Shown: piece after piece, positions 8,485 to 47,323 of the stretch | Position numbering within the stretch: the stretch's first letter is position 1 | Layout: each line of letters starts with the position of its first letter | Origin: Pseudomonadales bacterium | GTDB taxonomy: Bacteria > Pseudomonadota > Gammaproteobacteria > Pseudomonadales > UBA7434 | NCBI GenBank assembly: GCA_965263235.1 | Contig: OZ253667.1 | Span: 1,617,796-1,681,795, forward strand | Direction: 5' to 3' | DNA: 64,000 bases | Notes under the pieces: generated by a model | The model's input: only the letters and a program-made list of their open reading frames with translations | What the model was told of the DNA's origin: nothing | Databases searched by the model: none | Made by a program: the position numbers and the translations under genes

Positions 8485-8487
8485 TTC

Positions 8488-30891: not shown

Positions 30892-32127
30892 TTATTCGGA
30901 TATGCTCGGGTGTCGAAATACCAATGAAGTATTGATGCCACCAAAGGCGAAGTTGTTACTCATGATATACGAAGCTTTAAAGCGTCTTCCATCTCCCATT
31001 ATATAGTCTAAATTGCCGCACTCAGGGTCAGCTTCTTTGAGATTGTGAGTAGGAGCGAACCATCCTTCATTCATCATATTTATACTCGCCCACGCTTCGA
31101 TCGCTCCGCAAGCACCAAGCGTGTGCCCAATATGCCCCTTGAGAGTACTGACAGGTACGCCATCTCCAAATACTCTTGCTGTGGCATTTGATTCCGCTAC
31201 GTCGCCACGATCTGTTGCTGTCCCGTGCGCGTTAACATACCCGATTTTATCCGGGCTTAAATTAGCGTTTTCCAAGGCAAGCTCCATCGCGATTTGCATC
31301 GTATGAGTATTTGGTTGCGTAACGTGACAACCATCGGAGTTGGAACCATAGCCCACTATCTCAGCGTAAATATTTGCGCCCCGTGCTTTAGCATGTTCAA
31401 GTTCTTCTAGTACCAGAGTTCCCGCTCCTTCACCAATAACCAGGCCGTCTCGATTGCTGTCAAAAGGGCAGGGTGTGGCGCTCGGCATATCATTTTTCGC
31501 GCTCGTAGCGTAAAGCGTGTCAAAAACGGCCGCCTCGGTTGGGCATAGCTCTTCTGCGCCACCGGATAACATGACAGTTTGCTGACCGCTCGCAATTGCT
31601 TCATATGCGAGGCCAATACCCTGACTGCCTGAGGTGCACGCAGTGGATGTGGTGTAGGTTCTTCCTTTTAAACCAAAGAATACACAGATGTTAACAGACG
31701 TCGTATGAGCCATCATCCTGATGTACGTGGTTGCAGTGATATTGCTCATATCACCATCACTAAGCATCTTTCCGAAGTCTAATACCGCATCTGTACTTCC
31801 CGTTGATGAACCGTACGAAACACCAGTTTTACCACTTTGCAAGATAGGGTGATCGGTTAGTCTGGCGTCATCTAACGCCATCTCGGTGGAGCGGACTGCG
31901 AGCAATGAAACTCTACCCATGGAACGGGTTTTCTTTCTAGGATAGTTAGGTTGTACAAAGTCTTCGATAGGGCCGGCTAAACGTGTATTTAAATCGGTAT
32001 ATTGCTCCCAGCTCGGCATGAATTGGATGCCACTTTTTCCTGCCTTCAAATTTCGACTAAATTCATCCCAATTTGAGCCAAGAGAGGTGAGAACCCCCAT
32101 ACCCGTAACCACAACGCGCTTAGGCAT
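30892..32127 (-). CDS. beta-ketoacyl-ACP synthase (FabF/FabB-like; ApeR-like)
   Basis: Cys-His-His contexts TSTACTSGSQ, NAHGTATDRGD and GHIGHTLGACG, plus C-terminal NNFAFGGINTSLVF. Confidence 0.9.
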   Translation of the reverse strand: MPKRVVVTGMGVLTSLGSNWDEFSRNLKAGKSGIQFMPSWEQYTDLNTRLAGPIEDFVQPNYPRKKTRSMGRVSLLAVRSTEMALDDARLTDHPILQSGKTGVSYGSSTGSTDAVLDFGKMLSDGDMSNITATTYIRMMAHTTSVNICVFFGLKGRTYTTSTACTSGSQGIGLAYEAIASGQQTVMLSGGAEELCPTEAAVFDTLYATSAKNDMPSATPCPFDSNRDGLVIGEGAGTLVLEELEHAKARGANIYAEIVGYGSNSDGCHVTQPNTHTMQIAMELALENANLSPDKIGYVNAHGTATDRGDVAESNATARVFGDGVPVSTLKGHIGHTLGACGAIEAWASINMMNEGWFAPTHNLKEADPECGNLDYIMGDGRRFKASYIMSNNFAFGGINTSLVFRHPSISE

Positions 32128-32858
32128 TAAAGCATTCCTCCATTGACCGAAATAACTTGTCGAGTGATGTACGAAGATTCCTGGGACACTAAAAAGCTGA
32201 CAGCCGCTGCAACCTCATGTGGTTGTCCTATGCGATTCATAGGAATCATTTTTAGTGCTTCATTTTGAGGAAGAGCTTCAAGCATATCGGTTTCTATCAT
32301 TCCAGGCGCAACGCAATTTACGGTTATCTTACGCTTAGCGAGTTCGACGGCAAGCGCTTTAGTCGCGCCTATAATTCCAGCTTTGCTCGCACTATAGTTT
32401 ACTTGACCTCTATTGCCCATAAGCCCGGAAACTGAAGATATTGTAACGATCCGACCGGCGCTTTTGCGCCTAATCATCGGCATAACAACTGGGTGAAGAA
32501 CGTTGTAAAAACCGTCCAGGTTCGTATGTATTACATTATTCCAATCGCTTTCCGATAGGGCAGGGAATGCACCATCAATAGCTAGGCCAGCGTTACACAC
32601 GACTCCATAGTATGCGCCGTTTTCCGCAATATCATTTTCAAGAGTTACCCGAGTAGATATTTGGTCTGAAATATCCATTTGAAGCAATCGGCCCCTTCCT
32701 CCCTGTTTCATTATCTGCTCGAGAACTTCTTGCGCCTGAGTAGTGCTTTTTCGATAGTGAATTACAACGCAATATCCATCAGAACTCAAACGAAGTGCTA
32801 TTGCTTTACCTATTCCCCGGCTTGCACCGGTGACCAAGACTGTTTCCATGAACCTCAA
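32127..32858 (-). CDS. 3-oxoacyl-ACP reductase (FabG-like; ApeQ-like)
   Basis: TGASRGIGKAIA, NAG, and YSASKAG (YxxxK). The start may instead be the Met of METVLV (32849). Confidence 0.9.
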   Translation of the reverse strand: MRFMETVLVTGASRGIGKAIALRLSSDGYCVVIHYRKSTTQAQEVLEQIMKQGGRGRLLQMDISDQISTRVTLENDIAENGAYYGVVCNAGLAIDGAFPALSESDWNNVIHTNLDGFYNVLHPVVMPMIRRKSAGRIVTISSVSGLMGNRGQVNYSASKAGIIGATKALAVELAKRKITVNCVAPGMIETDMLEALPQNEALKMIPMNRIGQPHEVAAAVSFLVSQESSYITRQVISVNGGML

Positions 32859-33313
32859 ATACTCTTAAATATAGCTTGTGAATCATCAGGCATTATCGCC
32901 TTAACGTCCGCGCGTGCAAGCAATCGTTTTTGCTCGTCGTGAATAGTGCAGTCGAAAAGAGCTAAGCCGTCATCACTAAGTAGTGAGCATTCTATACTTA
33001 CCGTTAGTAGTGCGTTAGCATCAAAACTTGTCAGAAATGACTCGTATTTTCTGGTTCCAAGTAAAAAGCCTAGCTTTAAGGGGGACTTATTTTGCTTTGC
33101 TTGAATGCCCGCAAAAATAGCTATACTTTGCGCCATATATTCTAAACCTACCCATGCAGGGACCGATCCATTAGCGCCCGTAAATATAGAAGGAATACTT
33201 AAGTCGATATAAGTTTCTAGCTGATCTTCAGAATAGTGTCGAATCCCTGTGACGAGCATCATGGGTTTCCTATGCAAAAGAAACTCAGAGGGATTGTCCA
33301 AATTCATATCCAT
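32855..33313 (-). CDS. hotdog-fold 3-hydroxyacyl-ACP dehydratase (ApeP-like)
   Basis: 152 aa, with WVGLEYMAQSIAIFAG resembling the FabA/FabZ-like central-helix region. 4-nt overlap with the KR gene. Confidence 0.6.
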   Translation of the reverse strand: MDMNLDNPSEFLLHRKPMMLVTGIRHYSEDQLETYIDLSIPSIFTGANGSVPAWVGLEYMAQSIAIFAGIQAKQNKSPLKLGFLLGTRKYESFLTSFDANALLTVSIECSLLSDDGLALFDCTIHDEQKRLLARADVKAIMPDDSQAIFKSI

Positions 33314-33326
33314 TAGCGATGCGAAC

Positions 33327-33881
33327 CTAGTAGTTCGGGCCCAACTCCTCGAGAGACTGCAATTCCAGCCTATACCTATTTGTACTATTAACTAGAATGA
33401 GGTGCCTTGGAGACCCAGAAAGAGCGGCATTATACGTGATTTGCACAGAGGTGGCAGATTCTTCGTCGTATAGTTTTAGGTGAGTATCATCGCCATCAAG
33501 CCTGTTACCATAAAAATGTTTCAAGCTGGATCGAGGCCAAAGTAGCAGTTGAAGATCCCTAAACAATATGTCTGGATTCAGAGATAGTACTTCGTATCGT
33601 GGTTTTGCCGTTGAAAGAACGCCGTTGACTAACTGAAACGAGATCGCAGACCGCCCAAAATTACCGAGAAGCGCAAAGTTGGTTGTGGACACATTGGCCT
33701 CAACAACTAGTTCATAGCTTTTTAAAGCTTGGTTCTCTTGTGCTATGGTCAGCTGCCCTCGATAGAAACCTGGCGGCAGGTCAGCAGCTGATACATATGA
33801 GATTTCTTTAGTCTCAATAGCCCCGCAGCTCGTAAGCAATAATATTAATGATAGAAATAGTTGTTGGCTCAATCTACGCAT
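33327..33881 (-). CDS. lipoprotein (DUF3261/ApeN-like position)
   Basis: Signal peptide with lipobox LLLTS-C. 184 aa. Overlaps the MMPL gene by 8 nt. Confidence 0.55.
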   Translation of the reverse strand: MRRLSQQLFLSLILLLTSCGAIETKEISYVSAADLPPGFYRGQLTIAQENQALKSYELVVEANVSTTNFALLGNFGRSAISFQLVNGVLSTAKPRYEVLSLNPDILFRDLQLLLWPRSSLKHFYGNRLDGDDTHLKLYDEESATSVQITYNAALSGSPRHLILVNSTNRYRLELQSLEELGPNY

Positions 33882-36255
33882 CGACTGGCTCTGCTTGATT
33901 CGTTGCTTTTACTGGCCCAACGAGAATCAGTCTAAAGGCTGGTACGAGAGTAAGATTAAATACGCTTCCGAGCAATACAGTAACGCCGAATGCACTAATC
34001 ATTGGAGTACTACTAAATGAGAGCAAGCCAAAAGAAAGGCAGCTAGTTAATGCTGATAAAAATATAGCAGCTAAACACCGGGATTCATTTTTTCTGGGGC
34101 TGTTTAAAAAGATACCGTAGTCAAGTCCAAGGCCAAGTACAAGGAACAAGCCGAAGAAATGGAACAGGCTAAGATGAACATCAAAATAGCTCAGAATTGC
34201 CAGGGTGAGAGCTGTGCTCAACAAAGGCGTTGCAACTATAAGTGCAGCAGTAACCACACGATGATAAATAGAGATAATAGCGGTCACAACAATATAAGCC
34301 ACCATAAGTATTTTCATTGCATGGTCTTGTTGCAATTGAAGGCTTTTATCCAAGCGCTCGACCTGATCAATAAATAAAACCTGATCCATTTTGTCAGCAA
34401 TGCTGCGAAGTGCTTCTAGATCCGTAATTCCACGCAGTGTGATTATTGATGCCCATTCGTTCGACACTTTTCCCAACCATAATGAAGTAATTCTTGGGTC
34501 GTCTAAACCTCGCCAAACATCACTTGTGAGGGGATTATTCACTGCAGTCGCAAACTCCCGAAAGTACGTTTTAATCGCTTTTTCATTCAGCCCCAAATCT
34601 CTCATCAATTCTTTTGCGTTAATTTCACTGTGGAGGCCTTCTAAAAGTGCATAATTTTCGCGTTGATAATGTTCCGAGGGCCAATAGTTGCTAATAGCGT
34701 CAAACCCCAGAATTACCTCGCGCTCAACGAGTTTTTTTAATTCTTCGCCGAGGTTTTCTTCTTGTATTAACAAACGTTCGACCGAGCTTTCGCTCACAAG
34801 GAAGTAGTGCGTGGGCGAACGGCCGGCGAGTACAGAGTTAATGTGCTCCTCTTCAAAAATTAGTTGTGGGGAGGGCGTATGCAGTGCCCGAGAGTTCAAG
34901 GATATTTCAGTTCTAGTAGCAACGAACCAAATTGCGGTTAGCCCCGCTAATAATACAAGTATGACTAGTTTGCGATAGCTGATTTGCTTCCATAATCTAA
35001 TGCCAGCGATCGCGAGGTTATTAAGCAGTTTAGGTTGATAACCAGACCGTCTATTTGGCAATAATGGAAAAATGGCCATAACAAATAGCCAGCTACTAAT
35101 AAGACCTGTCGCGGAAAATGCCGCAATCTGCTTCAGCCCTGTCAAAGAAGAAAACCATAAACAGCTAGCGGCGATCACCGTCGTTACCAGGCCCACAAGC
35201 ATTTCAGGAAAAATGTCAGTCAAACTATTTGTGTTTTTTTTAAATTGATAGTGCCAAGCAAAAAAGTGTAAGCAGTAGTCGATGGCTATACCTATTAGGC
35301 TTGCGCCAAACACTAAAGTAAAAATATGAATACCATTAAAAAACGTGTGGACTATAGCGATAGCAGCAAAGCACCCAAAACCGATAGCGAGTAGGCTGCA
35401 GACTAACGGTATTGTGCTGCGATATGCCCATATAAAAAGTAATATAATGCCCGTGATGGACCCTACTGCTACAATCTGAACTTCATGCTTGGATTTGCTA
35501 GCAGTTTTCGCGGAGTGGAAAAGTAATCCTGATCGATAGGTGTTAATATCGTCTGGTAATTCATTTATCAACTTTTGAATATACCGGTCGACACGCTCTT
35601 GATAGCCAAGATTTAAAGCGCTCTCTTTTAGGCTCAGTATAATGACGGCCGAGCGCGTAGAATCGTGATGATCAATCCATAGTAGCCCGCCATCTTCGTA
35701 AACTTCGGAGAAACCTGTTTGTCCGCTTGCATACCAGTCCGAAAATAGTCCCAATGGATCTCTAGTGACAGGTATTGTGGAGGAAATATTACTCGTTAAG
35801 CTATATATATTTGAGTACGCATTTTCTTTTAACTCATCATATCTCTTTTCTTCTAGCGCTCGGCGAGAATTTTTACTAAGCAATCCAAAGCGATAGCCCG
35901 CTATGTCTTTTGCGTTCAAGTTCCATTCTGTGCCAATGGTTTCGCGCTTAAAGAGGCCGCTCTTATGAAGCTCGGTACTAACGTGAAAAGCTTCGCTTTC
36001 TATATTCCGGTCGCTACTAAGCATAAGTAAAATATTAGAGCTACCAAGCTCAACCATTTTGTCGGTGGCAGCTTGCTCAAGCATAGAGCGCTGATTACGT
36101 GGCAGAACGCTAGTTAAGTCTGTTTCGACCTGGAAGCCATCTTTGACAATTTGGTATGTCAGGGCTGAAGAAAATATAGTAACTAAGATAAAAACAAACC
36201 GTATTATCGTCTGTTTTTCAAAGAACAAATGATCGGGCGGGGCTTTGCTTTCCAT
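33874..36255 (-). CDS. MMPL/RND-superfamily exporter (ApeM-like)
   Basis: 793 aa. Two clusters of about 5-6 hydrophobic helices, each preceded by a soluble domain. This is the typical MMPL layout. Confidence 0.75.
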   Translation of the reverse strand: MESKAPPDHLFFEKQTIIRFVFILVTIFSSALTYQIVKDGFQVETDLTSVLPRNQRSMLEQAATDKMVELGSSNILLMLSSDRNIESEAFHVSTELHKSGLFKRETIGTEWNLNAKDIAGYRFGLLSKNSRRALEEKRYDELKENAYSNIYSLTSNISSTIPVTRDPLGLFSDWYASGQTGFSEVYEDGGLLWIDHHDSTRSAVIILSLKESALNLGYQERVDRYIQKLINELPDDINTYRSGLLFHSAKTASKSKHEVQIVAVGSITGIILLFIWAYRSTIPLVCSLLAIGFGCFAAIAIVHTFFNGIHIFTLVFGASLIGIAIDYCLHFFAWHYQFKKNTNSLTDIFPEMLVGLVTTVIAASCLWFSSLTGLKQIAAFSATGLISSWLFVMAIFPLLPNRRSGYQPKLLNNLAIAGIRLWKQISYRKLVILVLLAGLTAIWFVATRTEISLNSRALHTPSPQLIFEEEHINSVLAGRSPTHYFLVSESSVERLLIQEENLGEELKKLVEREVILGFDAISNYWPSEHYQRENYALLEGLHSEINAKELMRDLGLNEKAIKTYFREFATAVNNPLTSDVWRGLDDPRITSLWLGKVSNEWASIITLRGITDLEALRSIADKMDQVLFIDQVERLDKSLQLQQDHAMKILMVAYIVVTAIISIYHRVVTAALIVATPLLSTALTLAILSYFDVHLSLFHFFGLFLVLGLGLDYGIFLNSPRKNESRCLAAIFLSALTSCLSFGLLSFSSTPMISAFGVTVLLGSVFNLTLVPAFRLILVGPVKATNQAEPVDA

Positions 36256-36276
36256 TACGTCAAAATGATAGTTGAC

Positions 36277-36894
36277 TTAAAGTGGAGAAAATAGGTGTTT
36301 TTTATCAGGAGAGGGGGTTTCTAATTCGTAGGTGTTCGAAAAAGAAATTTGTGTCCGCTCTCCGCTAACGGCGAAAATAGTCACTTCCTTAAGGTATGTC
36401 TGTCCCGACAACGATATTGTTGAGATGTTATTTTTTATGGCTTTCATTTTGGGTGAAAGCTCTATGCTCCATGCACTTTCATTGCGCTCAACTTTTTCGG
36501 CTTCAAACATCTTATTTAGTTGGCTAGAGTCTGCTCCAAATAATGACAAGATAACTTTATTAACGTGCCTTTGTATAACATCGCTTGATTCATCGGCGGT
36601 TACTTCACCATTCGAGTTCCAGCTAAGTGTTTTGTTTTTGTTATAGGTAGTTGCATGAAAATAGGGCTTATTTATTTCCCAATATAAGCCTTGGTTTCGC
36701 CAAAAATAAAACCTGCCGGAAGATAAGACCTCTTTAGAGAACCCTTTGATCGTACGTACTTGGTTGAAATCACCTCCTACGAAATTCTGAAGACTAAGCT
36801 CTTTGGTAAGCTCATCTATAGTTAGAGCATTGCTGTTCTGCGAAAAAACATTGGCGGAACAAAAATATAATAGTAAGAAAACAAAGGCGCGCAT
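36277..36894 (-). CDS. LolA-like periplasmic lipid/lipoprotein carrier (ApeL-like)
   Basis: Cleavable signal peptide MRAFVFLLLYFCSANVFSQ. 205 aa and beta-rich. Position between the thioesterase and MMPL genes as in APE clusters. Confidence 0.55.
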   Translation of the reverse strand: MRAFVFLLLYFCSANVFSQNSNALTIDELTKELSLQNFVGGDFNQVRTIKGFSKEVLSSGRFYFWRNQGLYWEINKPYFHATTYNKNKTLSWNSNGEVTADESSDVIQRHVNKVILSLFGADSSQLNKMFEAEKVERNESAWSIELSPKMKAIKNNISTISLSGQTYLKEVTIFAVSGERTQISFSNTYELETPSPDKKHLFSPL

Positions 36895-36896
36895 AT

Positions 36897-37301
36897 TTAA
36901 CTTTCTTTAAGTCGCTGCAAAAAAATTTTAGGGCTTTCAAAACAAGTTTCTCTTGACTTAATTTCGACAGCCATTTGGGTGGTTGTGGCCTTGCTTAAAC
37001 GATCACCAGATTGAGCGTCTCGCACTAAATATTTGATCTTAAGCCGATGCTCCCATTCTATTATCGTTGCTTCTATATTTACTTTCTGCTTGTATATTAG
37101 CGGTTTGATGTACTTTACTCGAAGATCAACTACCGGCCACGCGTGCCCGTTATCAAACATCTCATCATAGTTGTAGTTTATAGATTCAAGCAGAGCACAC
37201 CGAGCAACCTCCAGATAACGGATGTAAGTCCCGTGCCAGACTACGTTCATGGGGTCGCAGTCATGGAAATGAACATCTATTTGTGTAGTAAAGCTTTTCA
37301 T
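36897..37301 (-). CDS. 4HBT/YbgC-type hotdog acyl-(ACP/CoA) thioesterase (ApeK-like)
   Basis: DVHFHDCDPMNVVWHGTYIRYLEVAR carries the 4HBT catalytic-Asp context. 134 aa. Confidence 0.75.
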   Translation of the reverse strand: MKSFTTQIDVHFHDCDPMNVVWHGTYIRYLEVARCALLESINYNYDEMFDNGHAWPVVDLRVKYIKPLIYKQKVNIEATIIEWEHRLKIKYLVRDAQSGDRLSKATTTQMAVEIKSRETCFESPKIFLQRLKES

Positions 37302-38038
37302 GCCGATGGCTTAAATTTTAACTTGAGAATTCGATGTAGCTGCGTGAGCATTCCAAAAAAAAGGCGTGCATGCATTTTCGAAATTCTAATATTGTCGTTC
37401 CAAAGGTCGAAATGTGAAGGAATGCTTTCATCGTAACGCACTTTTGTATATACATTTATTACAGGTACGCCAGCCCAATAAAGTCGCACAATGATGTCGG
37501 AGTCGAAGTCCATTCGCGAGCAAACTTTTTGTTTGGCTAGAAGTTCACAAGTTTGCGCAAGTGGATAAACCCGGTACCCACACATGGAATCCTTAATCTG
37601 GGTTGACAGCGTGTTAACACAAACCCAAAAATCGGTAATCATCCGGCCGTACTTTCTATTGTTAGGCATTTCCGCATACGATCTTGCGCCGGATACTATT
37701 GTCTTTGTATTGTTTTTTGCTGTGGAAATAAACTTAGATATGTCTCCTGGATCATGTTGGCCATCTGCGTCTATTTGAAGTGCGTGCGTGAACCCTTTGC
37801 CAGCCGCGAACTGAAGACCAGTGCAAACTGCTGCCCCTTTCCCTTGATTAGGCTCTAACCGAATCAGCTCGACAGACGTGTTATTCGCAGATAGCTCCTC
37901 CAGAAAATACCGATATCTACAATCGCTGCCGTCATCAACAAGAATGCAGGGGAGTTCTTGAGCATTAACAGAAGCGACAATCTGGCCTATCTTATCTTTA
38001 TGATTATATACAGGGACAATCACGCACGGCTTAAACAT
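37298..38038 (-). CDS. family-2 glycosyltransferase (ApeJ-like)
   Basis: VIVPVYNH, VDDGSD and QIDADGQHD are GT-A/GT2 signatures. Confidence 0.8.
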   Translation of the reverse strand: MFKPCVIVPVYNHKDKIGQIVASVNAQELPCILVDDGSDCRYRYFLEELSANNTSVELIRLEPNQGKGAAVCTGLQFAAGKGFTHALQIDADGQHDPGDISKFISTAKNNTKTIVSGARSYAEMPNNRKYGRMITDFWVCVNTLSTQIKDSMCGYRVYPLAQTCELLAKQKVCSRMDFDSDIIVRLYWAGVPVINVYTKVRYDESIPSHFDLWNDNIRISKMHARLFFGMLTQLHRILKLKFKPSA

Positions 38039-38381
38039 CTTGCCCGCCTATCCTGATTTTACCGGAGGAGAACTGTTGCAGGTTATTGAAATATTTAAAG
38101 CTCAGCAGGGTGCTGTCTTTTGGCAGTTCTAAATCTAGGGATAGTTGCGTGTTTGGAGTGATAGGGTGAGTGAACTTAACTTTGTCCATTGCACCAAAAA
38201 TCAGCTCCCTTTTATAAACACTAGCGAGTTTTAACGCCCAGCCAATCTGGACGACCCCGGGAACCAATGCAAAGTCATTAAAGTGGCCTTGAAAGTACGC
38301 AAGATCTTCGTTGACATAAAGCTTAAATGACGCTTTATTTCTATTGACCTGACTATCTAGAATGGTGGGGAGGTCTAGCAT
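38031..38381 (-). CDS. small hotdog-fold dehydratase-like protein (ApeI-like)
   Basis: FQGHFNDFALVPGVVQIGW is a FabZ/FabA-type His-x-Phe...PG motif. 116 aa. Confidence 0.6.
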   Translation of the reverse strand: MLDLPTILDSQVNRNKASFKLYVNEDLAYFQGHFNDFALVPGVVQIGWALKLASVYKRELIFGAMDKVKFTHPITPNTQLSLDLELPKDSTLLSFKYFNNLQQFSSGKIRIGGQDV

Positions 38382-38422
38382 AATATGCTGCCTGACAACC
38401 AGAACTTAGAGTATCTGTTTTT

Positions 38423-38701: not shown

Positions 38702-38813
38702 GACTACCCTAAGCTGTACCAGTTAACATTCAATGAAAGCAACGTCAATCTGTCTTTCCACATGTGATCCCTTGCCGATCACATGATAACAAAAATAGAA
38801 CGCAAAGACAGCG

Positions 38814-39653: not shown

Positions 39654-40600
39654 AGGCCATCAACTTCAACTTCAAGCTCTTTGCGGCAAATATCGCCACG
39701 CACAAATAGTGTAGGGACATTTGGATAGTGAAGATTAAGCATGCGCTGGGCGGCCGCAAGATTTTCAGTTTTTCGTACGTAGATCTTGAGGAGGTCAAGT
39801 GAGACAGTGGAGCCGATAGACTTTGCAGTATGCGAAACCAGCTGGTTAATGTTACTAATGGTAAGATCGAGTTGGGGTTCGAAGTCGCCGCTATGGATCG
39901 TTTTGTGCCCTCTGATACTCGCAGTCCCTGAAATATATACGTGAGAGCTACTAGCGGTTGCTCTAGCGAACGAGGGCGCTTTTGGTCCATACTGTCGGGG
40001 GTAATTAAATGCGCTAAGCTGTAGCGGATTTTCTATATTCTCGCCGCGGTGCTTTGAGGCCAAGAGATATATGATCATTGGCCCACCCGAGTGGCCAATT
40101 GCGCATGCGGAGGGGTAACTTTCGGAATAGTAGCGTTTGAACGCATTATATCGGCCCACGCAAAATTGTTTATATTTTTCCGCGTCGTCTTCGCCCTGGT
40201 TGATACCGGAAAAATAATTCCAGGCCCTTAATATAAAAGGGAATCCACGCATAGAAATGGTACTCAATAATTTTGAGTACGCACGACATGTTATGTCACT
40301 TAAACTTTCGCTGTCTGTGTGGACTTGCGTCGAGCAAATGAGTAAGTCATCGCTTTCACACCAGGACACTCCGTCGGATTCACCAGACTCTATGTGGCTT
40401 TCGCATCTCCATACTTCCGTTTGCTGGGTTTCTGAAAGTGATGGTAGGCCGGTATTAATGTGACGTTCGCCAGTCGCAAGCGACCAGGGGGCATCCTCAT
40501 ACGAAAATACCGCAAAGACATTTTTTTCTTTTAGCAATGAGTTGGGTGATTCCGTGGAATACTCGAAGCGGATATTCGCCATCAGTAGATAAAGCTCCAT
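39632..40600 (-). CDS. chorismatase (FkbO/Hyg5/XanB2 family; hydroxybenzoate-forming)
   Basis: FILRAWNYFSGIN, KYKQFCVGRYNAF, NPLQLSAFNYPRQYGPKAPSFARAT and VYISGTASIRGHKT resemble the XanB2/FkbO YjgF-like fold signatures as I recall them. The start is uncertain: 40600 (MELYLL), 40582 (MANIRFEY), or the ORF-track 40720, which would overlap the divergent gene. Confidence 0.65.
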   Translation of the reverse strand: MELYLLMANIRFEYSTESPNSLLKEKNVFAVFSYEDAPWSLATGERHINTGLPSLSETQQTEVWRCESHIESGESDGVSWCESDDLLICSTQVHTDSESLSDITCRAYSKLLSTISMRGFPFILRAWNYFSGINQGEDDAEKYKQFCVGRYNAFKRYYSESYPSACAIGHSGGPMIIYLLASKHRGENIENPLQLSAFNYPRQYGPKAPSFARATASSSHVYISGTASIRGHKTIHSGDFEPQLDLTISNINQLVSHTAKSIGSTVSLDLLKIYVRKTENLAAAQRMLNLHYPNVPTLFVRGDICRKELEVEVDGLCSIQAH

Positions 40601-40706
40601 TATTTTTGGCGCGCATTCTAGCACAAAAGATGGTAGAGTCTGCGCCAGAATTAAGCTCTGGTAACGGGGCCGTTCAATGGTGTAATTAAGATATAGGATA
40701 TGACGA

Positions 40707-41465
40707 ATGTCACCAGGCAAACATGATGTAAAAACAGGGCTGGCTCCTCACCCCGTTTTGTCCGATTATTATACTCACGCGGAAGATCGTCGTGAGCGTG
40801 TCGACACAATGTTTGATAGTTCAGCTGAGCATTATGATTGGATATGCCGCATGATGAGCTTTGGATCGGGTGACAGCTACCGGCGCCAGGCGTTGGTTCG
40901 CCAGGGTTTAGAACAAGGCATGAGCGTTCTTGACGTCGGCGCAGGTACAGGCGTTGTCTCATTTCTAGCTCAAGAAATAGTGTCAGAAAGCGGGTTTGTG
41001 GTAGCGCTGGATCCAAGTAAAGGGATGTTATCGGAGGCGAGAAAATTAGGGGTAAAACGATTATCGATGGGCCTGGGTGAGGCGCTGCCTTTCGCCGACA
41101 ATTCCTTCGATATACTTACCATGGGCTTTGCGTTGCGTCATGTGGCCGATCTCGAAGAGGCCTTTGCAGAATATCGGCGTGTTTTAAAACCGGGTGGAAA
41201 AGTAGTGGTGCTTGAAATAAGCCGACCTGCAAGTCCACTTGCTACGTTCTTTCTCAAAATTTATATGAAAGGCATTGTCCCGACAATCACCCGTATTTTT
41301 CGCCGTAGCTCAGCCGCAGAAGAACTCATGCGGTATTATTGGGACACGATTGAACATTGTGTTCCGCCTTCCAGTATTGTTTCAGCGTTAGATGCTGTAG
41401 GATTTACGCAGCCAGGTCGTCACGTGGTGATGGGTATGTTTAGTGAGTATACAGGTATAAAATAA
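40707..41465 (+). CDS. class I SAM-dependent methyltransferase (UbiE/MenG-like; ApeB-like)
   Basis: VLDVGAGTGVVS (motif I), LPFADNSFD, LKPGGKVVVLE. Confidence 0.85.
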   Translation: MSPGKHDVKTGLAPHPVLSDYYTHAEDRRERVDTMFDSSAEHYDWICRMMSFGSGDSYRRQALVRQGLEQGMSVLDVGAGTGVVSFLAQEIVSESGFVVALDPSKGMLSEARKLGVKRLSMGLGEALPFADNSFDILTMGFALRHVADLEEAFAEYRRVLKPGGKVVVLEISRPASPLATFFLKIYMKGIVPTITRIFRRSSAAEELMRYYWDTIEHCVPPSSIVSALDAVGFTQPGRHVVMGMFSEYTGIK

Positions 41466-41495
41466 GGTTTCGAAACGGTTATTTTCGAGAGTAGG

Positions 41496-41774
41496 ATGAT
41501 GTTCAATCAAAGTGACAAAGAGAAAGAACTCGCAAAGATTCTTGTGGCAGCTCTGGATTTAGAAGATCTAGAAACAGAAGAGATTAACCCAAAGGCACCC
41601 TTGTTTGGCTTTGACAGTCCGGACAGTCTTGGCTTAGATTCTATCGACGCTCTGGAAATCTCTCTTGCTATTGCTAAGAATTATAATGTCCACATCAAAG
41701 CAGATGATGAAAATAATAAAGCAATTTTTGCGAGCTTAGGTTCTCTTGTGGAGCATATTGAGGCCAATAGCTAG
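41496..41774 (+). CDS. acyl carrier protein
   Basis: 92 aa and acidic, with LGLDSIDALEISLAI. Confidence 0.85.
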   Translation: MMFNQSDKEKELAKILVAALDLEDLETEEINPKAPLFGFDSPDSLGLDSIDALEISLAIAKNYNVHIKADDENNKAIFASLGSLVEHIEANS

Positions 41775-41785
41775 GATTTTAAGGC

Positions 41786-42409
41786 GTGAGTTCATTGCTT
41801 ACGATTGTCTGTACTCTTAGTTATCCACTGCTTGTTCATTTAGCGATAATTAGAAGCGAGCCTGTATTGTTACTTTTAGCAATCATATTGCTGATTTTTG
41901 GGCTTTTACTGTTTCGCTTAAAAGCAGGTGCCATCGACGCCTGGCTGATTTTTATAGCAGTGTTAATATCAGCTGGTGTCACATATCATTTCAGTTTACT
42001 ACTCTATGTGTCATTTGCTCCCCCGGTCGTTTTACCTTTACTCTTATTCTATATTTTTGGTAGAACGCTTTTGCGTGGAGAGACCCCTTTAGTCACGAGG
42101 ATAGGACAAGAAGCACGAGGACCACTTGGCAGCCCCCTGGAACGTTACACGCGTCGGGTAACTCAGTTGTGGACGTGCTTTTTTCTATTTTCGGCTGTGT
42201 TTTCTTTATGCCTCGCTATATTTGCATCCGCGTATCTGTGGTCTATCTATACCAACTTTATTAGCTATATCTTAACAGCAATACTTTTTGCTGGGGAATT
42301 CGTATGGCGAAAAACTAAGTTTCAGCAACACGATCACCCCAGTTTTATTGACTACGTAAAAATTGTAGTTCGATCACAGATGAAGAAAAGGGATGAATAC
42401 CAGCACTGA
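41786..42409 (+). CDS. integral membrane protein of unknown function
   Basis: 207 aa with about 5 hydrophobic helices. GTG start. Overlaps the ligase gene by 17 nt. Confidence 0.5.
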   Translation: MSSLLTIVCTLSYPLLVHLAIIRSEPVLLLLAIILLIFGLLLFRLKAGAIDAWLIFIAVLISAGVTYHFSLLLYVSFAPPVVLPLLLFYIFGRTLLRGETPLVTRIGQEARGPLGSPLERYTRRVTQLWTCFFLFSAVFSLCLAIFASAYLWSIYTNFISYILTAILFAGEFVWRKTKFQQHDHPSFIDYVKIVVRSQMKKRDEYQH

Positions 42410-43712
42410 ATTAATAGCTGATTACAACCCGCACGCTGCTTTTATTTATAGAGATCATTGGGTGGTAACGCAGGAGCAGTTCCTTTCCGAGGCGTATCGG
42501 TTAGCCCACAAATTGCCTGAGGGCGTACTATTAATAAACTTTTGCCATGATCGCTATTATTTTGCCTTGGCGTTTGCAGCGGCTCTTATAAAAGGCTCTA
42601 CAAGTTTACTGCTACCCAACAGGCAGAGCGGAACATTAGCAGAGGTTCTATTGGAATTCCCCAATAGTATTTGTGTTTTAGATCACGATGAATCCCCTGC
42701 GGTCGACAGCCTGGATGTTAGGGTTGATTACTCAGATTTAGAACCAGTAAAGTATGCGCCAGAGCTTCCCTATATTAAAGATGACCTGGTTGCAGCGATA
42801 GCGCTCACATCCGGAAGCACAGGAAAACCTAAAGCGTTAGAAAAACCATGGAGTACTCTAGCAGGCACGGCCCGGCGCCTGGGACGAAGGTTTGACACTT
42901 CAGGGTCGTCCTATTGTATTTCGGCAACCGTACCCTCTCAACATATGTATGGCCTGGAGATGACAGTACTAATGGCCCTTCAGGCAGGGTGCTCTCTAAA
43001 TTGTGCTCATCCTTTTTTCCCAAAGGATATTCTAACTTCGCTATGTGCTACCCCAGAACCCCGATTATTCGTCAGCACGCCCGTCCACCTTCGGGTACTA
43101 CAGGAAAGTGGGCTTGAACCATGTCGTGTTAGTAAAATTGTTTCTGCGACCGCCCCCTTATCAACAGAGCTAGCGACCAAGACAGAGCTTTTTTTTGGCG
43201 GGCGATTGGATGAGATATATGGTTTTACCGAGGCAGGCAGTGTGGCAACTCGCAGACCCTCCGATACCCTGGTCTGGCAATTGCTCGACAATATGTCTAT
43301 TCGGGAGGTGAAAGGTTCCATCGCCGTAGAGGGGCAGCACCTGAAGAATGCGCAAACGGTGACGGATGTTGTTGAGCTCATAGACGACAGGACATTTTGC
43401 TTACTAGGCAGATCTAATGATATGTTGAATATAGCGGGCAAACGCAGCTCTTTGGTCGAACTAAACTTAAAGCTTCTTGGGGTGACGGGAGTTGAAGATG
43501 GGATTGTTTTTTTAACTGAATCTGAGGGCGAGCGTCCTGTTGCGCTCGTGGTTACAAGGCGTACCGTGCATGACATTAGCCAGGAGCTCGCGAATAGCAT
43601 CGATCCAGTGTTTTTACCAAGACCGATAAAAAAAGTATCCCATCTGCCTCGAAATAGTACAGGAAAGATACCAAGCAAATCTCTGAATGAATTATGGATG
43701 GAACTTGAATGA
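42393..43712 (+). CDS. AMP-dependent aryl/acyl-ACP ligase (adenylate-forming; ApeH/XanA2-like)
   Basis: LTSGSTGKPK (A3), YGFTEAG (A5), and a C-terminal STGKIPSK Lys. Confidence 0.8.
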   Translation: MNTSTELIADYNPHAAFIYRDHWVVTQEQFLSEAYRLAHKLPEGVLLINFCHDRYYFALAFAAALIKGSTSLLLPNRQSGTLAEVLLEFPNSICVLDHDESPAVDSLDVRVDYSDLEPVKYAPELPYIKDDLVAAIALTSGSTGKPKALEKPWSTLAGTARRLGRRFDTSGSSYCISATVPSQHMYGLEMTVLMALQAGCSLNCAHPFFPKDILTSLCATPEPRLFVSTPVHLRVLQESGLEPCRVSKIVSATAPLSTELATKTELFFGGRLDEIYGFTEAGSVATRRPSDTLVWQLLDNMSIREVKGSIAVEGQHLKNAQTVTDVVELIDDRTFCLLGRSNDMLNIAGKRSSLVELNLKLLGVTGVEDGIVFLTESEGERPVALVVTRRTVHDISQELANSIDPVFLPRPIKKVSHLPRNSTGKIPSKSLNELWMELE

Positions 43713-44002
43713 TGGCATCTATTAAAATTGATGTGCCGGAGTACCATCCCTGTTATGCACACCATTTTCCCGATGGAGCGTTAGTGCCCGGAGCATTATT
43801 ACTGAGTTGGATTGCTAAAAAAATGAGGGGCGAACAGCTTGAACTTACTGGTGTAAAAACGCTTAAATTTCTGCGTCCGGTTGAACCTGGCCAACAGTGC
43901 GTTTTGAAATTAGACCATCGGGACACAACTGCAAAAATCAGCTTAACCACATCTGGCAAAGTGGTTCTTAAAGGTAGTGTGACTATAAAATATGTCAACT
44001 AA
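43709..44002 (+). CDS. small hotdog-fold dehydratase-like protein
   Basis: 97 aa with HHFPDGALVPGALLLSWI. ATGA overlap with the ligase gene. Confidence 0.55.
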   Translation: MMASIKIDVPEYHPCYAHHFPDGALVPGALLLSWIAKKMRGEQLELTGVKTLKFLRPVEPGQQCVLKLDHRDTTAKISLTTSGKVVLKGSVTIKYVN

Positions 44003-44906
44003 TGAACCACACTGGTCAGAACAACGAGAGCGGGCCAGTTTGTTCTGGATACAGCTACTAGCCTGGATCAGTTTGAATTTAGGACGACGATTTGTACGTA
44101 TATTATTGTTTCCTATAAGTTTGTTTTACCTTGTTTTCGCGCGCGATGCTGTTGCTCATTCAAAAAGTTATCTGGAAAGAATTCAACCCCAGAAAAGCGG
44201 TTGGCTGAATACCTGGCGCCATATATATACTTTTGCCTGTGTTTCTGTTGATCGCTTTTATATAGCTGCTGGCCGAGGCGATATTTTTTCAATTTCGGTG
44301 GAGGGGGAAGAATTATTGCAAAGGTTTGCCGAAGAAAAGCGTGGTTGCTTAATCCTGGTCTCTCATGCCGGTAGTTTTGAAGTGCTTAAGCAAAGAGGAA
44401 GCAATATCGACGCTGAGTTTTATGTATTGATGGACGTTCAACATAATTCCGCAGCAATGCAGGTACTAGAACGGATAAATCCGGAAATGAGCAAGCGTAT
44501 TATCGACTCACGTCTTAATCCAGCGGCTTTGGCTCTTAAATTAAAGGAGCATTTGCTAGCTGGCCATATGGTAGGCATTATGGCTGATCGTGCTGCTGAG
44601 TTTGAGAAGCAGGTAAGTTGTGATTTTTTAGGAGGTAGGGCAGATTTCCCGACCGGGCCATGGTCATTGGCATACGTGTTGAAAGTTCCGGTTGTAATGC
44701 TAACGGGGTTTTTTATGGGTAAAAACCAGTATCGTGTCAAAAGTCAGCTTCTTGCGGATCGTGTTTTGTTGCCACGAGCAAATAGAGAGCACGCGTTAAA
44801 ATCATATATAACACAGTACAGCGAAGCCCTGGAGGAAGAGTTAAGACTGGCTCCTTATAACTGGTTTAATTTCTACGAATTTTGGAATAGCGATGGCTCT
44901 GAGTAA
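43992..44906 (+). CDS. LpxL/HtrB-like (lipid A-type late) acyltransferase (ApeD-like)
   Basis: 304 aa. N-terminal membrane anchor (LFWIQLLAWISL), an H-x4-D/E-like VSHAGSFE, and size and layout of the LPLAT/LpxL family. Confidence 0.6.
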   Translation: MSTNEPHWSEQRERASLFWIQLLAWISLNLGRRFVRILLFPISLFYLVFARDAVAHSKSYLERIQPQKSGWLNTWRHIYTFACVSVDRFYIAAGRGDIFSISVEGEELLQRFAEEKRGCLILVSHAGSFEVLKQRGSNIDAEFYVLMDVQHNSAAMQVLERINPEMSKRIIDSRLNPAALALKLKEHLLAGHMVGIMADRAAEFEKQVSCDFLGGRADFPTGPWSLAYVLKVPVVMLTGFFMGKNQYRVKSQLLADRVLLPRANREHALKSYITQYSEALEEELRLAPYNWFNFYEFWNSDGSE

Positions 44907-46104
44907 GATTAGACCTCTAAGTATTTCTGCCACAACATTAGTAAGTAGCCTCGGTCATGGGCTAGATACTAACTGGCGGCAGCTACAAGAAGGTAACAGT
45001 GGTTTAGCTCCCTGTACTTTTCCGGGCGCGGAAAATTTGAAAACCTGGACAGGGGAGATATCAGGTCTTGACAGTATTAAGCTTCCTAAATCATTTAGCC
45101 ACTATGATTGCCGCAATAATCGCCTGTCCGCACTAGCACTAAAACAGGATGGCTTTCTGGAAGCCATTGCAAGATCAAAAGAAAAATATGGTACTAATCG
45201 GATTGGTGTTTTTATTGGTACCAGTACTTCCGGTATCCAGCAGACCGAATTAGCCTATAAAGAATGGCGCAAAAATCAAATGCAGGGCAAATTGCCCGAT
45301 TGGTATGAGTACCCGTCAACACACTGTGTTAGCTCTGTTAGCGAGTTTGTACGTGAATCGCTAGAGCTTGATGGTGTCTTTAATACCATATCCACTGCAT
45401 GCTCATCTAGTGCCAAGGTTTTTGCGTCAGCTCACCGATCCATCAGTGCGGGCATGTGTGATGCGGCAATTGTGGGTGGGGTAGACAGCTTGTGTCTAAC
45501 AACTTTGCACGGGTTTCACTCGTTACAACTTACGTCGGAAGAAGTGTGTCGCCCCTCCGATCGATCAAGAGATGGTATATCTATTGGCGAAGCCGCTGGA
45601 TTCGCTTTTCTTGAAGCTCCGGATGATAGCGTGTCCGGAGTGGGATTATTAGGATACGGCGAAAGCGGCGACGCCTATCATATGTCTAGCCCTCACCCTG
45701 ATGGTTTGGGTGCAGCAATTGCGATGCAAGATGCTTTATCCCGAGCCGGTTTGAAGCCTGGCCATGTAGATTATATTAATCTACATGGCACGGGAACTCA
45801 GGCGAATGACCTGGCAGAAGGTAAAGCAGTGCATCAAGTCGTTGGAGACCTGGTGCACTGCAGTTCGACGAAAGGCTGGACAGGCCATACACTGGGCGCC
45901 GCAGGAGCGGTGGAAGCTATTATTTCAGTACTTTGCGTAAGTAATAACTGGCTACCACAGAGTTTAAATACGAATGAAATTGATGGTGATATACCCACAA
46001 ATGTACTGCTGACCCCCTTAACAAAAGAAGTCAATTTGGTATTGAGTAACTCCTTTGGCTTTGGTGGAAGTAACTGTAGCCTGGCCATTGGTGAAATCAA
46101 ATGA
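44893..46104 (+). CDS. beta-ketoacyl-ACP synthase (ApeO-like elongating KS)
   Basis: STACSSSAKV (Cys), LHGTGTQANDLAE (His), GWTGHTLGAAGAVEA (His), SNSFGFGGSNCSLAI. Confidence 0.9.
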   Translation: MALSKIRPLSISATTLVSSLGHGLDTNWRQLQEGNSGLAPCTFPGAENLKTWTGEISGLDSIKLPKSFSHYDCRNNRLSALALKQDGFLEAIARSKEKYGTNRIGVFIGTSTSGIQQTELAYKEWRKNQMQGKLPDWYEYPSTHCVSSVSEFVRESLELDGVFNTISTACSSSAKVFASAHRSISAGMCDAAIVGGVDSLCLTTLHGFHSLQLTSEEVCRPSDRSRDGISIGEAAGFAFLEAPDDSVSGVGLLGYGESGDAYHMSSPHPDGLGAAIAMQDALSRAGLKPGHVDYINLHGTGTQANDLAEGKAVHQVVGDLVHCSSTKGWTGHTLGAAGAVEAIISVLCVSNNWLPQSLNTNEIDGDIPTNVLLTPLTKEVNLVLSNSFGFGGSNCSLAIGEIK

Positions 46105-46907
46105 CCCGTATATACATAGAAGCGATTGGCTTGGTGGCACCAGGAATGACTGGCTGGAAGGAGGGAAGAGCTGTGCTTCGTTGTGAATCTCCCTATGTCG
46201 ATAGAGAGCTAGAGCGTTATAAGCCAAGTTTTCTTCCACCCAATGAGCGTAGAAGAGCAACCAGCCTGGTTCGTTTGGCATTTCATGCTTGTGAAGACGC
46301 GATTGAACAAATACCTACCAGGGACCTCAGTCAAATGGGCAGTGTTTTCTGTTCATCGGGAGGCGATCATCAAATTATTGACCAGATATGTCGAGTAGTA
46401 ACTGAACCTAACCCTATGGTATCTCCGACACAGTTTCATAATTCGGTACATAATTCTGCGTTAGGCTATTGGGGAATTGCCACAAAATCTCGAAAACCCT
46501 CAACAAGTCTCGCTACCGGAAAATATACGTTTGCTGCGGGGTTAATGGAAGCCTTTACCATGGTGGTTACAGAGCAACTGAACACATTATTTGTTTGCTA
46601 CGAGACGTTTCCTCCGGAACCTTTGTGCTATGAAAGTGACATAACAAAATCATTTGCAAGCGCTTATGTTCTAGCTAAAGAAAAAACCGCGGACAGTATT
46701 GCTTCAATTGAGATTAAAGCGGGTACTCTGAGCGAAAAAAAGGAAACTTTATGCGCAAACAAAGCGCTCGAAACTCTTCGTGTATCGAGTGCAGCGTCAT
46801 TAGCGCTTCCAGTATTAGAAAAGCTGGCAAACCAGGAAGAAGGTAACGTTATAATGCAATTAAATGCGAAGCAACAGTTAGCGATCAATATCAAGCCGTG
46901 TTACTAG
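46101..46907 (+). CDS. KS-like chain-length-factor protein (ApeC-like, no catalytic triad)
   Basis: 268 aa with ATGA overlap onto the KS gene. It shows thiolase-fold-like segments (NSVHNSALGYWGIA) but no Cys-His-His contexts. Confidence 0.65.
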   Translation: MTRIYIEAIGLVAPGMTGWKEGRAVLRCESPYVDRELERYKPSFLPPNERRRATSLVRLAFHACEDAIEQIPTRDLSQMGSVFCSSGGDHQIIDQICRVVTEPNPMVSPTQFHNSVHNSALGYWGIATKSRKPSTSLATGKYTFAAGLMEAFTMVVTEQLNTLFVCYETFPPEPLCYESDITKSFASAYVLAKEKTADSIASIEIKAGTLSEKKETLCANKALETLRVSSAASLALPVLEKLANQEEGNVIMQLNAKQQLAINIKPCY

Positions 46908-47323
46908 ATCAAAAAGAAATTGCTGCTTTAATTCCTCACGGGGAAGGAATGTCATTACTGGATTCAGTTGAGTTCTGGGATGAGAAATCGATACGATGTC
47001 GCACGGCTTCCCATAATCGAGAGAGCAATCCTTTGCGTGATTGCACAAACCTGGATAGCTATCTACTGATCGAATATGGCGCGCAAGCAGCCGCTGTACA
47101 TGCTGGCTTGATACGATCGCAATTAGGCAGCGTTAGTGCCGCGTATCTGGGAGCGGTAAAATCGCTTAACCTTCTAAGCGATACAGTTCCATTGGTGGAC
47201 GAGCTAGTTGTTGAAGCGAAGCCCGCAGTGCAAAGTGAGGGGGGGGCAATTTATTGTTTTAGTGTGACAGCTGGCGATAGTTTGCTGGCCGAAGGCAGGT
47301 TAACGTTAGTACAACCCGCATAG
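46898..47323 (+). CDS. hotdog-fold dehydratase-like protein
   Basis: 141 aa with IPHGEGMSLLDSV and LIEYGAQAAAVHAGL. Overlaps the CLF gene by 10 nt. Confidence 0.6.
   Translation: MLLDQKEIAALIPHGEGMSLLDSVEFWDEKSIRCRTASHNRESNPLRDCTNLDSYLLIEYGAQAAAVHAGLIRSQLGSVSAAYLGAVKSLNLLSDTVPLVDELVVEAKPAVQSEGGAIYCFSVTAGDSLLAEGRLTLVQPA

Follow-up and report, generated by a model that had tools for sequence, protein, structure and literature searches.

A predicted aryl polyene cluster with xanthomonadin-like initiation and Escherichia coli-like anchoring and export in a marine gammaproteobacterium

What kind of product would be made by the 21 contiguous genes at positions 30892-47323 of the 64-kb window analysed here (the whole 64,000-nucleotide stretch taken from contig OZ253667.1 of the Pseudomonadales bacterium assembly GCA_965263235.1), and to which of the known pigment systems do these genes belong? 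Aryl polyene (APE) products protect against oxidative and light stress, and they also affect biofilm formation. APE clusters are considered the biosynthetic gene cluster family that is most widespread among bacteria in the literature (PMC8253772; bioRxiv 10.1101/2020.12.19.423268). The cluster in the window is very probably a system resembling type II polyketide synthases and fatty acid synthases (FAS), whose product would be a methylated, non-halogenated hydroxyphenyl-polyene carboxylic acid, anchored to a glycolipid and exported to the outer membrane. Sequence comparisons support its placement as an uncharacterised member of the known and very widespread APE kind, with xanthomonadin-like initiation and E. 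coli-like anchoring and export.

The listing of open reading frames (ORFs) shows the genes tightly packed in two divergent operons, the minus-strand one with 12 ORFs (30892-40720) and the plus-strand one with nine (40707-47323), neighbouring genes mostly overlapping by 1-22 bp or lying less than 50 bp apart, and a widest internal gap of 112 bp between 38701 and 38814. It reproduces exactly the coordinates of the APE/xanthomonadin-family cluster of about 16.5 kb that a first-pass annotation had proposed. The parts named there are all present, that is, two ketosynthases (KS), a chain-length factor (CLF), two acyl carrier proteins (ACPs), a ketoreductase (KR), four hotdog proteins, a 4HBT thioesterase, a ligase, a methyltransferase, a family 2 glycosyltransferase (GT2), acyltransferases and an export module. 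Its gene set was nearly complete, with 19 of the 21 genes named; a chorismatase and an ApeG-like membrane protein had been left without a name. Genes were assigned here by Pfam and NCBIfam models, BLASTP to E. coli ape proteins, matches to PDB structures and profile-profile comparison with hhalign (Table 1).

The two ketosynthases, judged by curated hidden Markov model cut-offs and by the ranking of PDB matches, appear to be APE-cluster enzymes and neither FabF nor FabB. The minus-strand KS scores 705.5 bits with NF006587/PRK09116 (cut-off 470), 377.4 with the FabF model TIGR03150 (cut-off 493.75) and 308.6 with FabB (cut-off 630), and is 60% identical to E. coli ApeR by BLASTP. The plus-strand KS scores 504.4 bits with NF006618/PRK09185 (cut-off 407), 241.5 with FabF (cut-off 493.75) and 151.3 with FabB (cut-off 630), and is 41% identical to E. 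coli ApeO by BLASTP; among solved structures, its top matches are the APE KS chains 7F28_B (250 bits) and 6QSP_A (243 bits), and no FabF exceeds 182 bits. An exact-sequence look-up of this second KS found no record. The Cys-His-His triad is intact in both enzymes (TACTSG/HGTAT/GHTLG in the minus-strand KS and TACSSS/HGTGT/GHTLG in the plus-strand KS), while the CLF has, in alignments, a Ser at the catalytic Cys column and stops before both His motifs. The only PDB matches of the CLF are 6QSP_B and 7F28_A, the partner chains in the APE KS structures, and it is 31% identical to E. coli ApeC by BLASTP. The earlier description of two complete KS with a triad-less CLF, distinct from housekeeping fab genes, is thus borne out. 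A pair made of a KS with the CSSS motif and a half-CLF has been described for the yellow pigment of Lysobacter (PMC3691225). At the KS-Cys column, Ser, Ala or Asn is found in half-CLFs of XanB2-associated clusters, and the classical CLF residue, Gln, in E. coli ApeC; for the Lysobacter CLF ORF16, an essential Gln (Q166) has been reported.

The gene-by-gene comparison that the first-pass annotation had recommended was made against E. coli apeA-R, with one annotated copy of the ape locus (L006) as reference. By BLASTP, 17 of the 21 genes are matched in E. coli, the enzymes at 26-61% identity; those without a match are the chorismatase, the UbiE-like methyltransferase, the DUF3261 protein and the hotdog protein of 97 aa. 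At the nucleotide level, blastn matched the KR-KS pair to the E. coli ape locus at 64% identity; the locus was found in 825 of the 5426 complete E. coli genomes. Relative to the ape clusters of E. coli CFT073 and Xenorhabdus doucetiae (products APE_Ec, APE_Xd and APE lipids), the window has counterparts of ApeC, D, E, F, G, H, I, J, K, L, M, N, O, P, Q and R, and it shares with E. coli the KS:half-CLF logic, the ApeI:ApeP logic and the LolA/MMPL/DUF3261 export module; reconstitution of ApeH/E/R/O/C/Q/I/P and ape deletions have been reported (PMC8253772). The minus arm retains the order I-J-K-L-M-N-P-Q-R, apeO having moved to the plus arm, where it is adjacent to apeC, whereas these two genes lie far apart in E. 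coli. The E. coli cluster runs in one direction, unlike the two divergent operons of the window. The window also has its own chorismatase where E. coli uses UbiC, a methyltransferase of the UbiE type in the place of ApeB, and one ApeI-like/ApeP-like pair more than E. coli, but no apeA counterpart and no adjacent acpT gene for a phosphopantetheinyl transferase (PPTase).

The second set of relatives comprises the xanthomonadin, Lysobacter and arcuflavin clusters, namely the Xanthomonas pig locus, L. enzymogenes ORF1-17 and the Azoarcus arc loci (PMC3691225, PMC3949708). The likeness to this type consists of a XanB2-type chorismatase beside a PlsC-like acyltransferase, an AMP-ligase, a UbiE-like methyltransferase, a CSSS-motif KS with a half-CLF and an ApeP-like hotdog protein next in order, and an LpxL-like acyltransferase beside a short ApeI-like hotdog protein. 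Identities to the loci of Rudaea (L007) and Hydrogenophilales (L003) are 53% for the KS, 46% for the methyltransferase, 46% for the KR and 33-38% for the chorismatase. These two loci share with the window only the xanthomonadin-type subset (chorismatase, PlsC-like, GT2, methyltransferase, KR, dehydratase (DH) pair 2, LpxL-like, KS and CLF); the window goes beyond the xanthomonadin types with an ApeR-like KS, ApeI/ApeP pair 1, an ApeK thioesterase and a DUF3261 lipoprotein. It has two ACPs against one in Xanthomonas (PMC8253772), and it is compact, in two operons, in contrast to the scattered arrangement in Xanthomonadales (Rudaea L007). In terms of part lists, the cluster is the union of the E. 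coli/Xenorhabdus ape set and the xanthomonadin/arcuflavin set, joining the lipid-anchoring and export set of the former with the initiation of the latter through a chorismatase of its own.

Within the family, the cluster belongs on the xanthomonadin side because of this chorismatase. In pigment pathways of this type, a XanB2 homologue and an AMP-ligase catalyse the first steps, the Azoarcus ArcB enzyme making 3-hydroxybenzoate (3-HBA) and the ArcT ligase activating it (PMC3949708), and a Lysobacter mutant in the XanB2 homologue is rescued by 3-HBA (PMC3691225). The ORF listed for the chorismatase is 39632-40720, starting from TTG and overlapping the start of the divergent methyltransferase gene; since the family match begins about 60 residues in and the database copy has 316 aa, the true start is most likely the ATG at 40582 (MANIRF...), giving a protein of 316 aa and, as a consequence, the 124-bp divergent intergenic region. 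The protein aligns end to end with Hyg5 (5AG3, 157 bits) and FkbO (4BPS, 149 bits), and at two sites where these differ it has the Hyg5 residues, with SGTAS and DICR (FkbO SATAG and DIAR), that is, Gly and Cys against Ala and Ala in FkbO. These diagnostic residues and the Glu E306 are invariant in an alignment with 12 relatives, which include Xanthomonadales proteins named by NCBI "pteridine-dependent deoxygenase" (the old XanB2 label), and many homologues are named "chorismate lyase/3-hydroxybenzoate synthase" by JGI. The combination Gly/Gly/Cys is the signature of the chorismatase subfamily forming 3-HBA (PMC7170507). All XanB2-like relatives share the Hyg5 signature, and its use as a predictor of 3-HBA versus 3-HBA plus 4-hydroxybenzoate (4-HBA) was dropped; as aligned, the residues would exclude an FkbO-type product and cannot separate output of 3-HBA only from 3-HBA plus 4-HBA. 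The chorismatase is proposed as the source of a 3-HBA starter, possibly also of 4-HBA.

An E. coli-type APE is the alternative that survives best, although we consider it unlikely. The chorismatase would then give mainly 4-HBA and the product would be a 4-hydroxy-methylphenyl polyene lipid like APE_Ec/APEL, instead of a 3-hydroxy or 3-methoxy xanthomonadin-like one. The collinearity of the minus arm with E. coli apeI-apeR, except for apeO, and the E. coli-like character of the best-conserved proteins (ApeR 60%, ApeQ 61% and ApeF 54%) are what this product would lead one to expect, and XanB2-type enzymes do yield both 3-HBA and 4-HBA, with subtypes that cannot be separated by sequence (PMC3949708). 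However, E. coli-type clusters have no chorismatase and take 4-HBA from UbiC (PMC8253772), in pigment clusters with a XanB2 homologue the demonstrated precursor is 3-HBA (PMC3691225, PMC3949708), and the methyltransferase is of the type found in xanthomonadin/arcuflavin loci (46% identity to L003), not ApeB.

For the chain-building steps, both ACPs have the serine motif DSID found in E. coli ApeE and ApeF (LGLDSIDALE in the ApeE-like ACP), and the single short-chain dehydrogenase/reductase (SDR) classifies as a FabG2 KR. Among the 21 cluster proteins, no enoyl reductase was recognised. The four hotdog proteins make up, as far as profiles and alignments tell, two ApeI-like/ApeP-like dehydratase pairs. 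In pair 1, the Pfam families for ApeP-like and ApeI-like proteins match directly, so that the APE-type model matches that had been suggested as a check are found. For the poorly annotated members of pair 2, each protein was combined with its syntenic homologues in a profile and compared by hhalign with ApeI and ApeP profiles. Pfam gives only a weak FabA match for the 97-aa member, which has a FabZ-type HHFP...PG motif and PDB matches that include FabZ structures and 6QSR_A, and its syntenic homologues in L004 and L005 (two related clusters described below) carry PF22818. The 141-aa member has no Pfam match at E 0.001 or below, but it is 45-52% identical to L004/L005 proteins carrying PF22817, 39% identical to a Rudaea (Xanthomonadales) homologue and weakly matched by E. 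coli ApeP in BLASTP (28%, E = 5.5e-07).

The presence of two pairs raises a further, rather improbable alternative, in which two parallel polyene lines share one KR. The plus operon (ApeE-like ACP, ligase, DH pair 2 and ApeO:ApeC) would make the aryl polyene and the minus operon (ApeF-like ACP, DH pair 1 and ApeR-like KS) a conjugated fatty acyl chain, or else the DH pairs would be split by chain length. Such a conjugated fatty acyl chain was found in APE lipids by Grammbitter et al. (bioRxiv 10.1101/2020.12.19.423268). If it were true, the locus would offer a natural genetic dissection of APE-lipid assembly, which is hidden in the fused, single-direction E. coli cluster. The single-line pathway for one aryl polyene is the reading followed below.

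The genes for lipid anchoring and export resemble those of E. coli, for which the structure of the APE lipid and roles of ApeD/J/G/L/M/N have been described (bioRxiv 10.1101/2020.12.19.423268). E. coli ApeJ (558 aa; L006 10581-12257) is a fusion of GT2 and LpxL-like parts. In the window and in its relatives, each part has a gene of its own, and the two genes belong to different operons, an arrangement in keeping with the two reactions in succession that Grammbitter et al. proposed for ApeJ. The ApeG-like protein is kept at the same position in L004, L005 and L010 (a Halioglobus locus). Numerous hydrophobic segments make the MMPL protein compatible with a multi-pass transporter; the N-terminus of the LolA-like protein is hydrophobic and looks, on visual inspection, like a signal peptide. 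For the DUF3261 protein, the assignment to ApeN comes from its Pfam family and from its position, which is that of apeN in E. coli. The export module recognised in the first-pass annotation (LolA-like carrier, MMPL exporter and lipoprotein) is therefore found as PF03548, PF03176 and PF11659, the last with the lipobox LLTS|C.

Table 1. Genes and divergent intergenic region of the predicted aryl polyene cluster (positions in the 64-kb window; percentages are amino acid identities)
Feature	Position	Strand	Basis
ApeR-like beta-ketoacyl-ACP synthase, 411 aa, proposed initiation KS	30892-32127	-	NF006587, BLASTP, motifs
ApeQ-like 3-ketoacyl-ACP reductase FabG2, 243 aa	32127-32858	-	TIGR01831 391.8 bits (cut-off 338.85); 61% to E. 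coli ApeQ
ApeP-like hotdog dehydratase subunit, 152 aa, DH pair 1	32855-33313	-	PF22817 59.2 bits; 28% to E. coli ApeP
ApeN-like DUF3261 lipoprotein, LolB-like, 184 aa	33327-33881	-	PF11659 35.6 bits; lipobox LLTS|C
ApeM-like MMPL/RND transporter, 793 aa	33874-36255	-	PF03176 35.4 bits; 26% over 666 aa to ApeM
ApeL-like LolA-family periplasmic carrier, 205 aa	36277-36894	-	PF03548 55.4 bits; 30% to E. coli ApeL
ApeK-like 4HBT thioesterase, 134 aa	36897-37301	-	PF13279 48.4 bits, PF03061; 48% to E. coli ApeK
GT2 glycosyltransferase, 246 aa, equivalent to ApeJ N-terminal half	37298-38038	-	PF00535 80.5 bits; 49% over 238 aa
ApeI-like hotdog dehydratase subunit, 116 aa, GHF...PG, DH pair 1	38031-38381	-	PF22818 59.3 bits; 33% to E. 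coli ApeI
ApeF-like acyl carrier protein, 92 aa	38423-38701	-	NF003757/PRK05350 118.8 bits (cut-off 65); 54% to E. coli ApeF
ApeD-like PlsC-family (lysophospholipid) acyltransferase, 279 aa	38814-39653	-	PF01553 54.9 bits; 35% to E. coli ApeD
XanB2/Hyg5-type chorismatase, 316 aa	39632-40582	-	PF21168 111.8 bits, TIGR04444, Hyg5/FkbO alignment
Divergent intergenic region, ~124 bp, presumed promoters of both operons	40583-40706	.	Sequence and start codons
UbiE/COQ5-family S-adenosylmethionine (SAM) methyltransferase, 252 aa	40707-41465	+	PF01209 125.5 bits
ApeE-like acyl carrier protein, 92 aa	41496-41774	+	NF006617/PRK09184 98.2 bits (cut-off 70); 40% to E. coli ApeE
ApeG-like multi-pass membrane protein, 207 aa	41786-42409	+	31% over 102 aa to E. 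coli ApeG; hydrophobic segments
ApeH/XanA2/ArcT-like aryl-acid adenylating ligase, 439 aa	42393-43712	+	PF00501 64.5 bits, PF13193
Second ApeI-like hotdog subunit, 97 aa, DH pair 2	43709-44002	+	hhalign 98.6% vs ApeI group
LpxL-like acyltransferase, 304 aa, equivalent to ApeJ C-terminal half	43992-44906	+	PF03279 31.4 bits; 29% over 320 aa
ApeO-like elongation ketosynthase, 403 aa	44893-46104	+	NF006618, BLASTP, PDB ranking, motifs
ApeC-like half-length KS-like chain-length factor, 268 aa	46101-46907	+	PF13723 92.5 bits, PDB, alignments
Second ApeP-like hotdog subunit, 141 aa, DH pair 2	46898-47323	+	hhalign 98.2% vs ApeP group

The same lipid-attachment genes bear on a flexirubin- or arcuflavin-type product, in which the polyene would be esterified to a dialkylresorcinol (DAR) and not to a glyco-glycerolipid, and which we regard as highly improbable. 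Flexirubin models match the KR (FlxB, 283.6 bits, cut-off 340) and the LolA-like protein (LolA2_flexi, 64.7 bits, cut-off 125) below threshold, and a XanB2 homologue is likewise used in arcuflavin clusters (PMC3949708), whose DAR genes can be unlinked; nevertheless, neither darAB-type (DarA/DarB-like) genes nor a tyrosine ammonia lyase occur among the annotated ORFs of the 64-kb window, and the attachment set of ApeD and split ApeJ is present and conserved. The locus is almost certainly not a second FAS II set for ordinary membrane fatty acids or lipid A acyl chains, given that, even though its KS, KR, hotdog dehydratases, ACPs, PlsC-like and LpxL-like proteins all belong to FAS-type families and the KR of the Xanthomonas cluster complements E. 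coli fabG (PMC6859482), both KS fall below the FabF/FabB cut-offs and above those of the APE-cluster models, PDB ranking favours the APE KS:CLF, a half-length CLF, an aryl-acid ligase, a chorismatase and the LolA/MMPL/DUF3261 module are present, and no FabI or other enoyl reductase, FabD or FabH is found in the cluster by Pfam and NCBIfam.

The favoured explanation, an exported and lipid-anchored aryl polyene, can be followed step by step, each step being modelled by homology on characterised systems. The XanB2/Hyg5-type chorismatase would convert chorismate into 3-HBA, possibly with some 4-HBA, and the ApeH/XanA2-like ligase would adenylate the acid and load it directly onto the ApeE-like ACP. 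The ApeR-like KS would carry out the first condensation and the ApeO-like KS, with the ApeC-like half-CLF, the iterative elongation with malonyl-ACP, the malonyl transferase and the PPTase being supplied from elsewhere in the genome. In each round, the FabG2/ApeQ-like KR would act first and an ApeI:ApeP-type hotdog dehydratase next, and the double bonds would stay conjugated because the cluster has no enoyl reductase. The UbiE-like methyltransferase would methylate the head group, and the ApeK-like thioesterase would proofread or release. The PlsC-like (ApeD), GT2 and LpxL-like proteins, the last two corresponding to ApeJ, would build the lipid/sugar anchor and esterify the polyene to it, and the ApeG-like protein, the MMPL transporter, the LolA-like carrier and the DUF3261 lipoprotein would carry the product to the outer membrane, where the pigment may protect against oxidative stress and light. 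The predicted lack of halogen agrees with the annotation, halogenase and FAD-monooxygenase families having no match either in the cluster or in the other annotated ORFs of the window, unlike in the related loci L009 and L010, which have a halogenase.

Several points weigh against this explanation or limit its detail. The chorismatase reaches 212.5 bits over its full length with TIGR04444, below the cut-off of 325, and its isomer output cannot be called from its residues, in line with the statement that the product of XanB2-like enzymes is not predictable from sequence (PMC3949708). The ligase is only 26% identical to E. coli ApeH, against 46-51% to its counterparts in L004 and L005. The methyltransferase, which is 71-76% identical to those of L004/L005 and 46% to that of the Hydrogenophilales xanthomonadin-like locus L003, has no BLASTP match to E. 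coli ApeB and is not orthologous to it, so that ApeB is no guide to where the head group would be methylated, or whether on C or O. The pathway supplies no reason for two DH pairs, and no PPTase or FabD was found within the window. Finally, the cluster could be silent, like the Xenorhabdus cluster under laboratory conditions.

How far is this combination of parts peculiar to one genome? L004 (GCA_041156565.1) and an ENA metagenome contig (L005) have the same order and orientation of the 21 genes, L005 as far as the contig reaches, with proteins 34-81% identical to those of the window and chorismatases at 43-46%. That the layout is kept at such protein identities argues for selection on the unit, and the surroundings differ, with hemA/prfA beside L004 and the GGDEF-EAL and tRNA-Arg genes beside the cluster of the window. 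The Halioglobus locus L010 has the same divergent layout plus Trp-halogenase-like and radical-SAM genes, without DH pair 1 and DUF3261, and L009 is a xanthomonadin-like locus with a halogenase beside KS/CLF. Among 5.8 billion proteins, the closest chorismatase is only 46% identical, the two nearest being those of L004 and L005, and a single scan of reference-genome contigs with the chorismatase gave only three distant loci at 33% identity. The AcnB protein of the host is 85-91% identical to those of uncultured "Pseudomonadales bacterium" metagenome-assembled genomes and about 80% to those of Microbulbifer, Teredinibacter and Marinibactrum, which suggests a Cellvibrionales-like marine gammaproteobacterium of an uncultured type. 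The union architecture is itself recurrent in marine gammaproteobacteria. The first-pass annotation had seen the novelty in the variant and the host; it is right that this is a new, uncharacterised member, but its 21-gene layout recurs elsewhere among marine gammaproteobacteria, in genomes and in metagenomes. One more APE member in a marine Cellvibrionales-like bacterium brings little that is new in principle and has a modest comparative value; even so, the cluster or its relatives would be a convenient system for the roles of each DH pair and each ApeJ half, and a way to ask whether marine bacteria make xanthomonadin-like lipids. GCA_041156565.1 also carries, on another contig than L004, a rearranged second XanB2-containing APE locus (L008); the chorismatases of L004 and L008 are 43% and 41% identical to that of the window, a case of either two paralogous clusters or a mixed bin.

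The cluster adjoins a GGDEF-EAL gene (28533-30815, plus strand) on its left, and on its right it is followed by an ORF (47374-48144), a tRNA-Arg(ACG) gene (48615-48691, plus strand, 1.3 kb downstream of the cluster) and a fatty-acid-hydroxylase-family gene (49030-49998). The ORF at 47374-48144 lies on the same strand, 50 bp 3' of the cluster, and encodes 256 aa with a hydrophobic N-terminus that looks by eye like a signal peptide; it has no Pfam or other family match and no counterpart beside the cluster in L004, L005 and L010, and it was excluded as a cluster member, not being conserved beside related clusters. An antisense ORF of 252 aa inside the ligase gene (43007-43765), with no family match, was taken as spurious. 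The annotated ORFs of the window include none for a PPTase, FabD, an enoyl reductase, a halogenase, an ammonia lyase or a DAR enzyme. The GC content is 0.41-0.46 over the cluster against 0.44-0.52 in the rest of the window, with the lowest values of the cluster (0.41-0.42) at 34-38 kb. Despite this slightly lower GC, there is no clear island signature and no integrase near the tRNA-Arg(ACG). Consensus scans over 30.5-49 kb for sigma-70 promoters and terminators gave counts near the shuffled expectation (28 vs 33.2 +/- 5.1 and 27 vs 18.4 +/- 4.2, respectively), and neither the divergent region nor the ends of the operons yielded a usable signal. With a threshold of E 0.1, Rfam gave no regulatory RNA in the cluster; its matches were the flanking tRNA and two sub-threshold ones outside the cluster. 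A ctRNA_p42d-like match at 48731-48765 (minus strand; 31 bits, gathering score 50) is probably just a hairpin.

Three genes related to cyclic di-GMP (c-di-GMP) are found in the window, at 28533-30815 (+), 13382-14689 (-) and 15880-16362 (+). They comprise two GGDEF-EAL proteins, one of which is the protein flanking the pigment cluster, and a YajQ-family c-di-GMP-binding protein, and a regulatory link between these genes and the cluster is conceivable, given the effect of the E. coli APE on biofilm. Beyond the tRNA gene, the plus strand encodes the protein of the fatty-acid hydroxylase superfamily mentioned above, an ArsR-like helix-turn-helix protein (50035-50352) and an AHSA1/SRPBCC protein (50422-50910). 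The first of these could be a lipid-tailoring enzyme; it is not conserved beside the cluster in relatives.

Other genes of the window lie farther from the cluster. A cytochrome P450 (53577-54848, plus strand) has its best match with a SolI-type model at 366 bits, far below the cut-off of 850, and a 2Fe-2S ferredoxin is encoded a few kb away (60752-61072, minus strand). Between them lies a block resembling valine catabolism (54951-60616), with 3-hydroxyisobutyrate dehydrogenase (HIBADH), 3-hydroxyisobutyryl-CoA hydrolase, enoyl-CoA hydratase, acyl-CoA dehydrogenase and aldehyde dehydrogenase. At 6031-12451 on the plus strand, four acyl-CoA dehydrogenases and two SDRs form a run that looks like an operon for beta-oxidation of dicarboxylates or alicyclic acids, and two of these dehydrogenases resemble the large and small subunits of pimeloyl-CoA dehydrogenase (469 and 299 bits, below the cut-offs).

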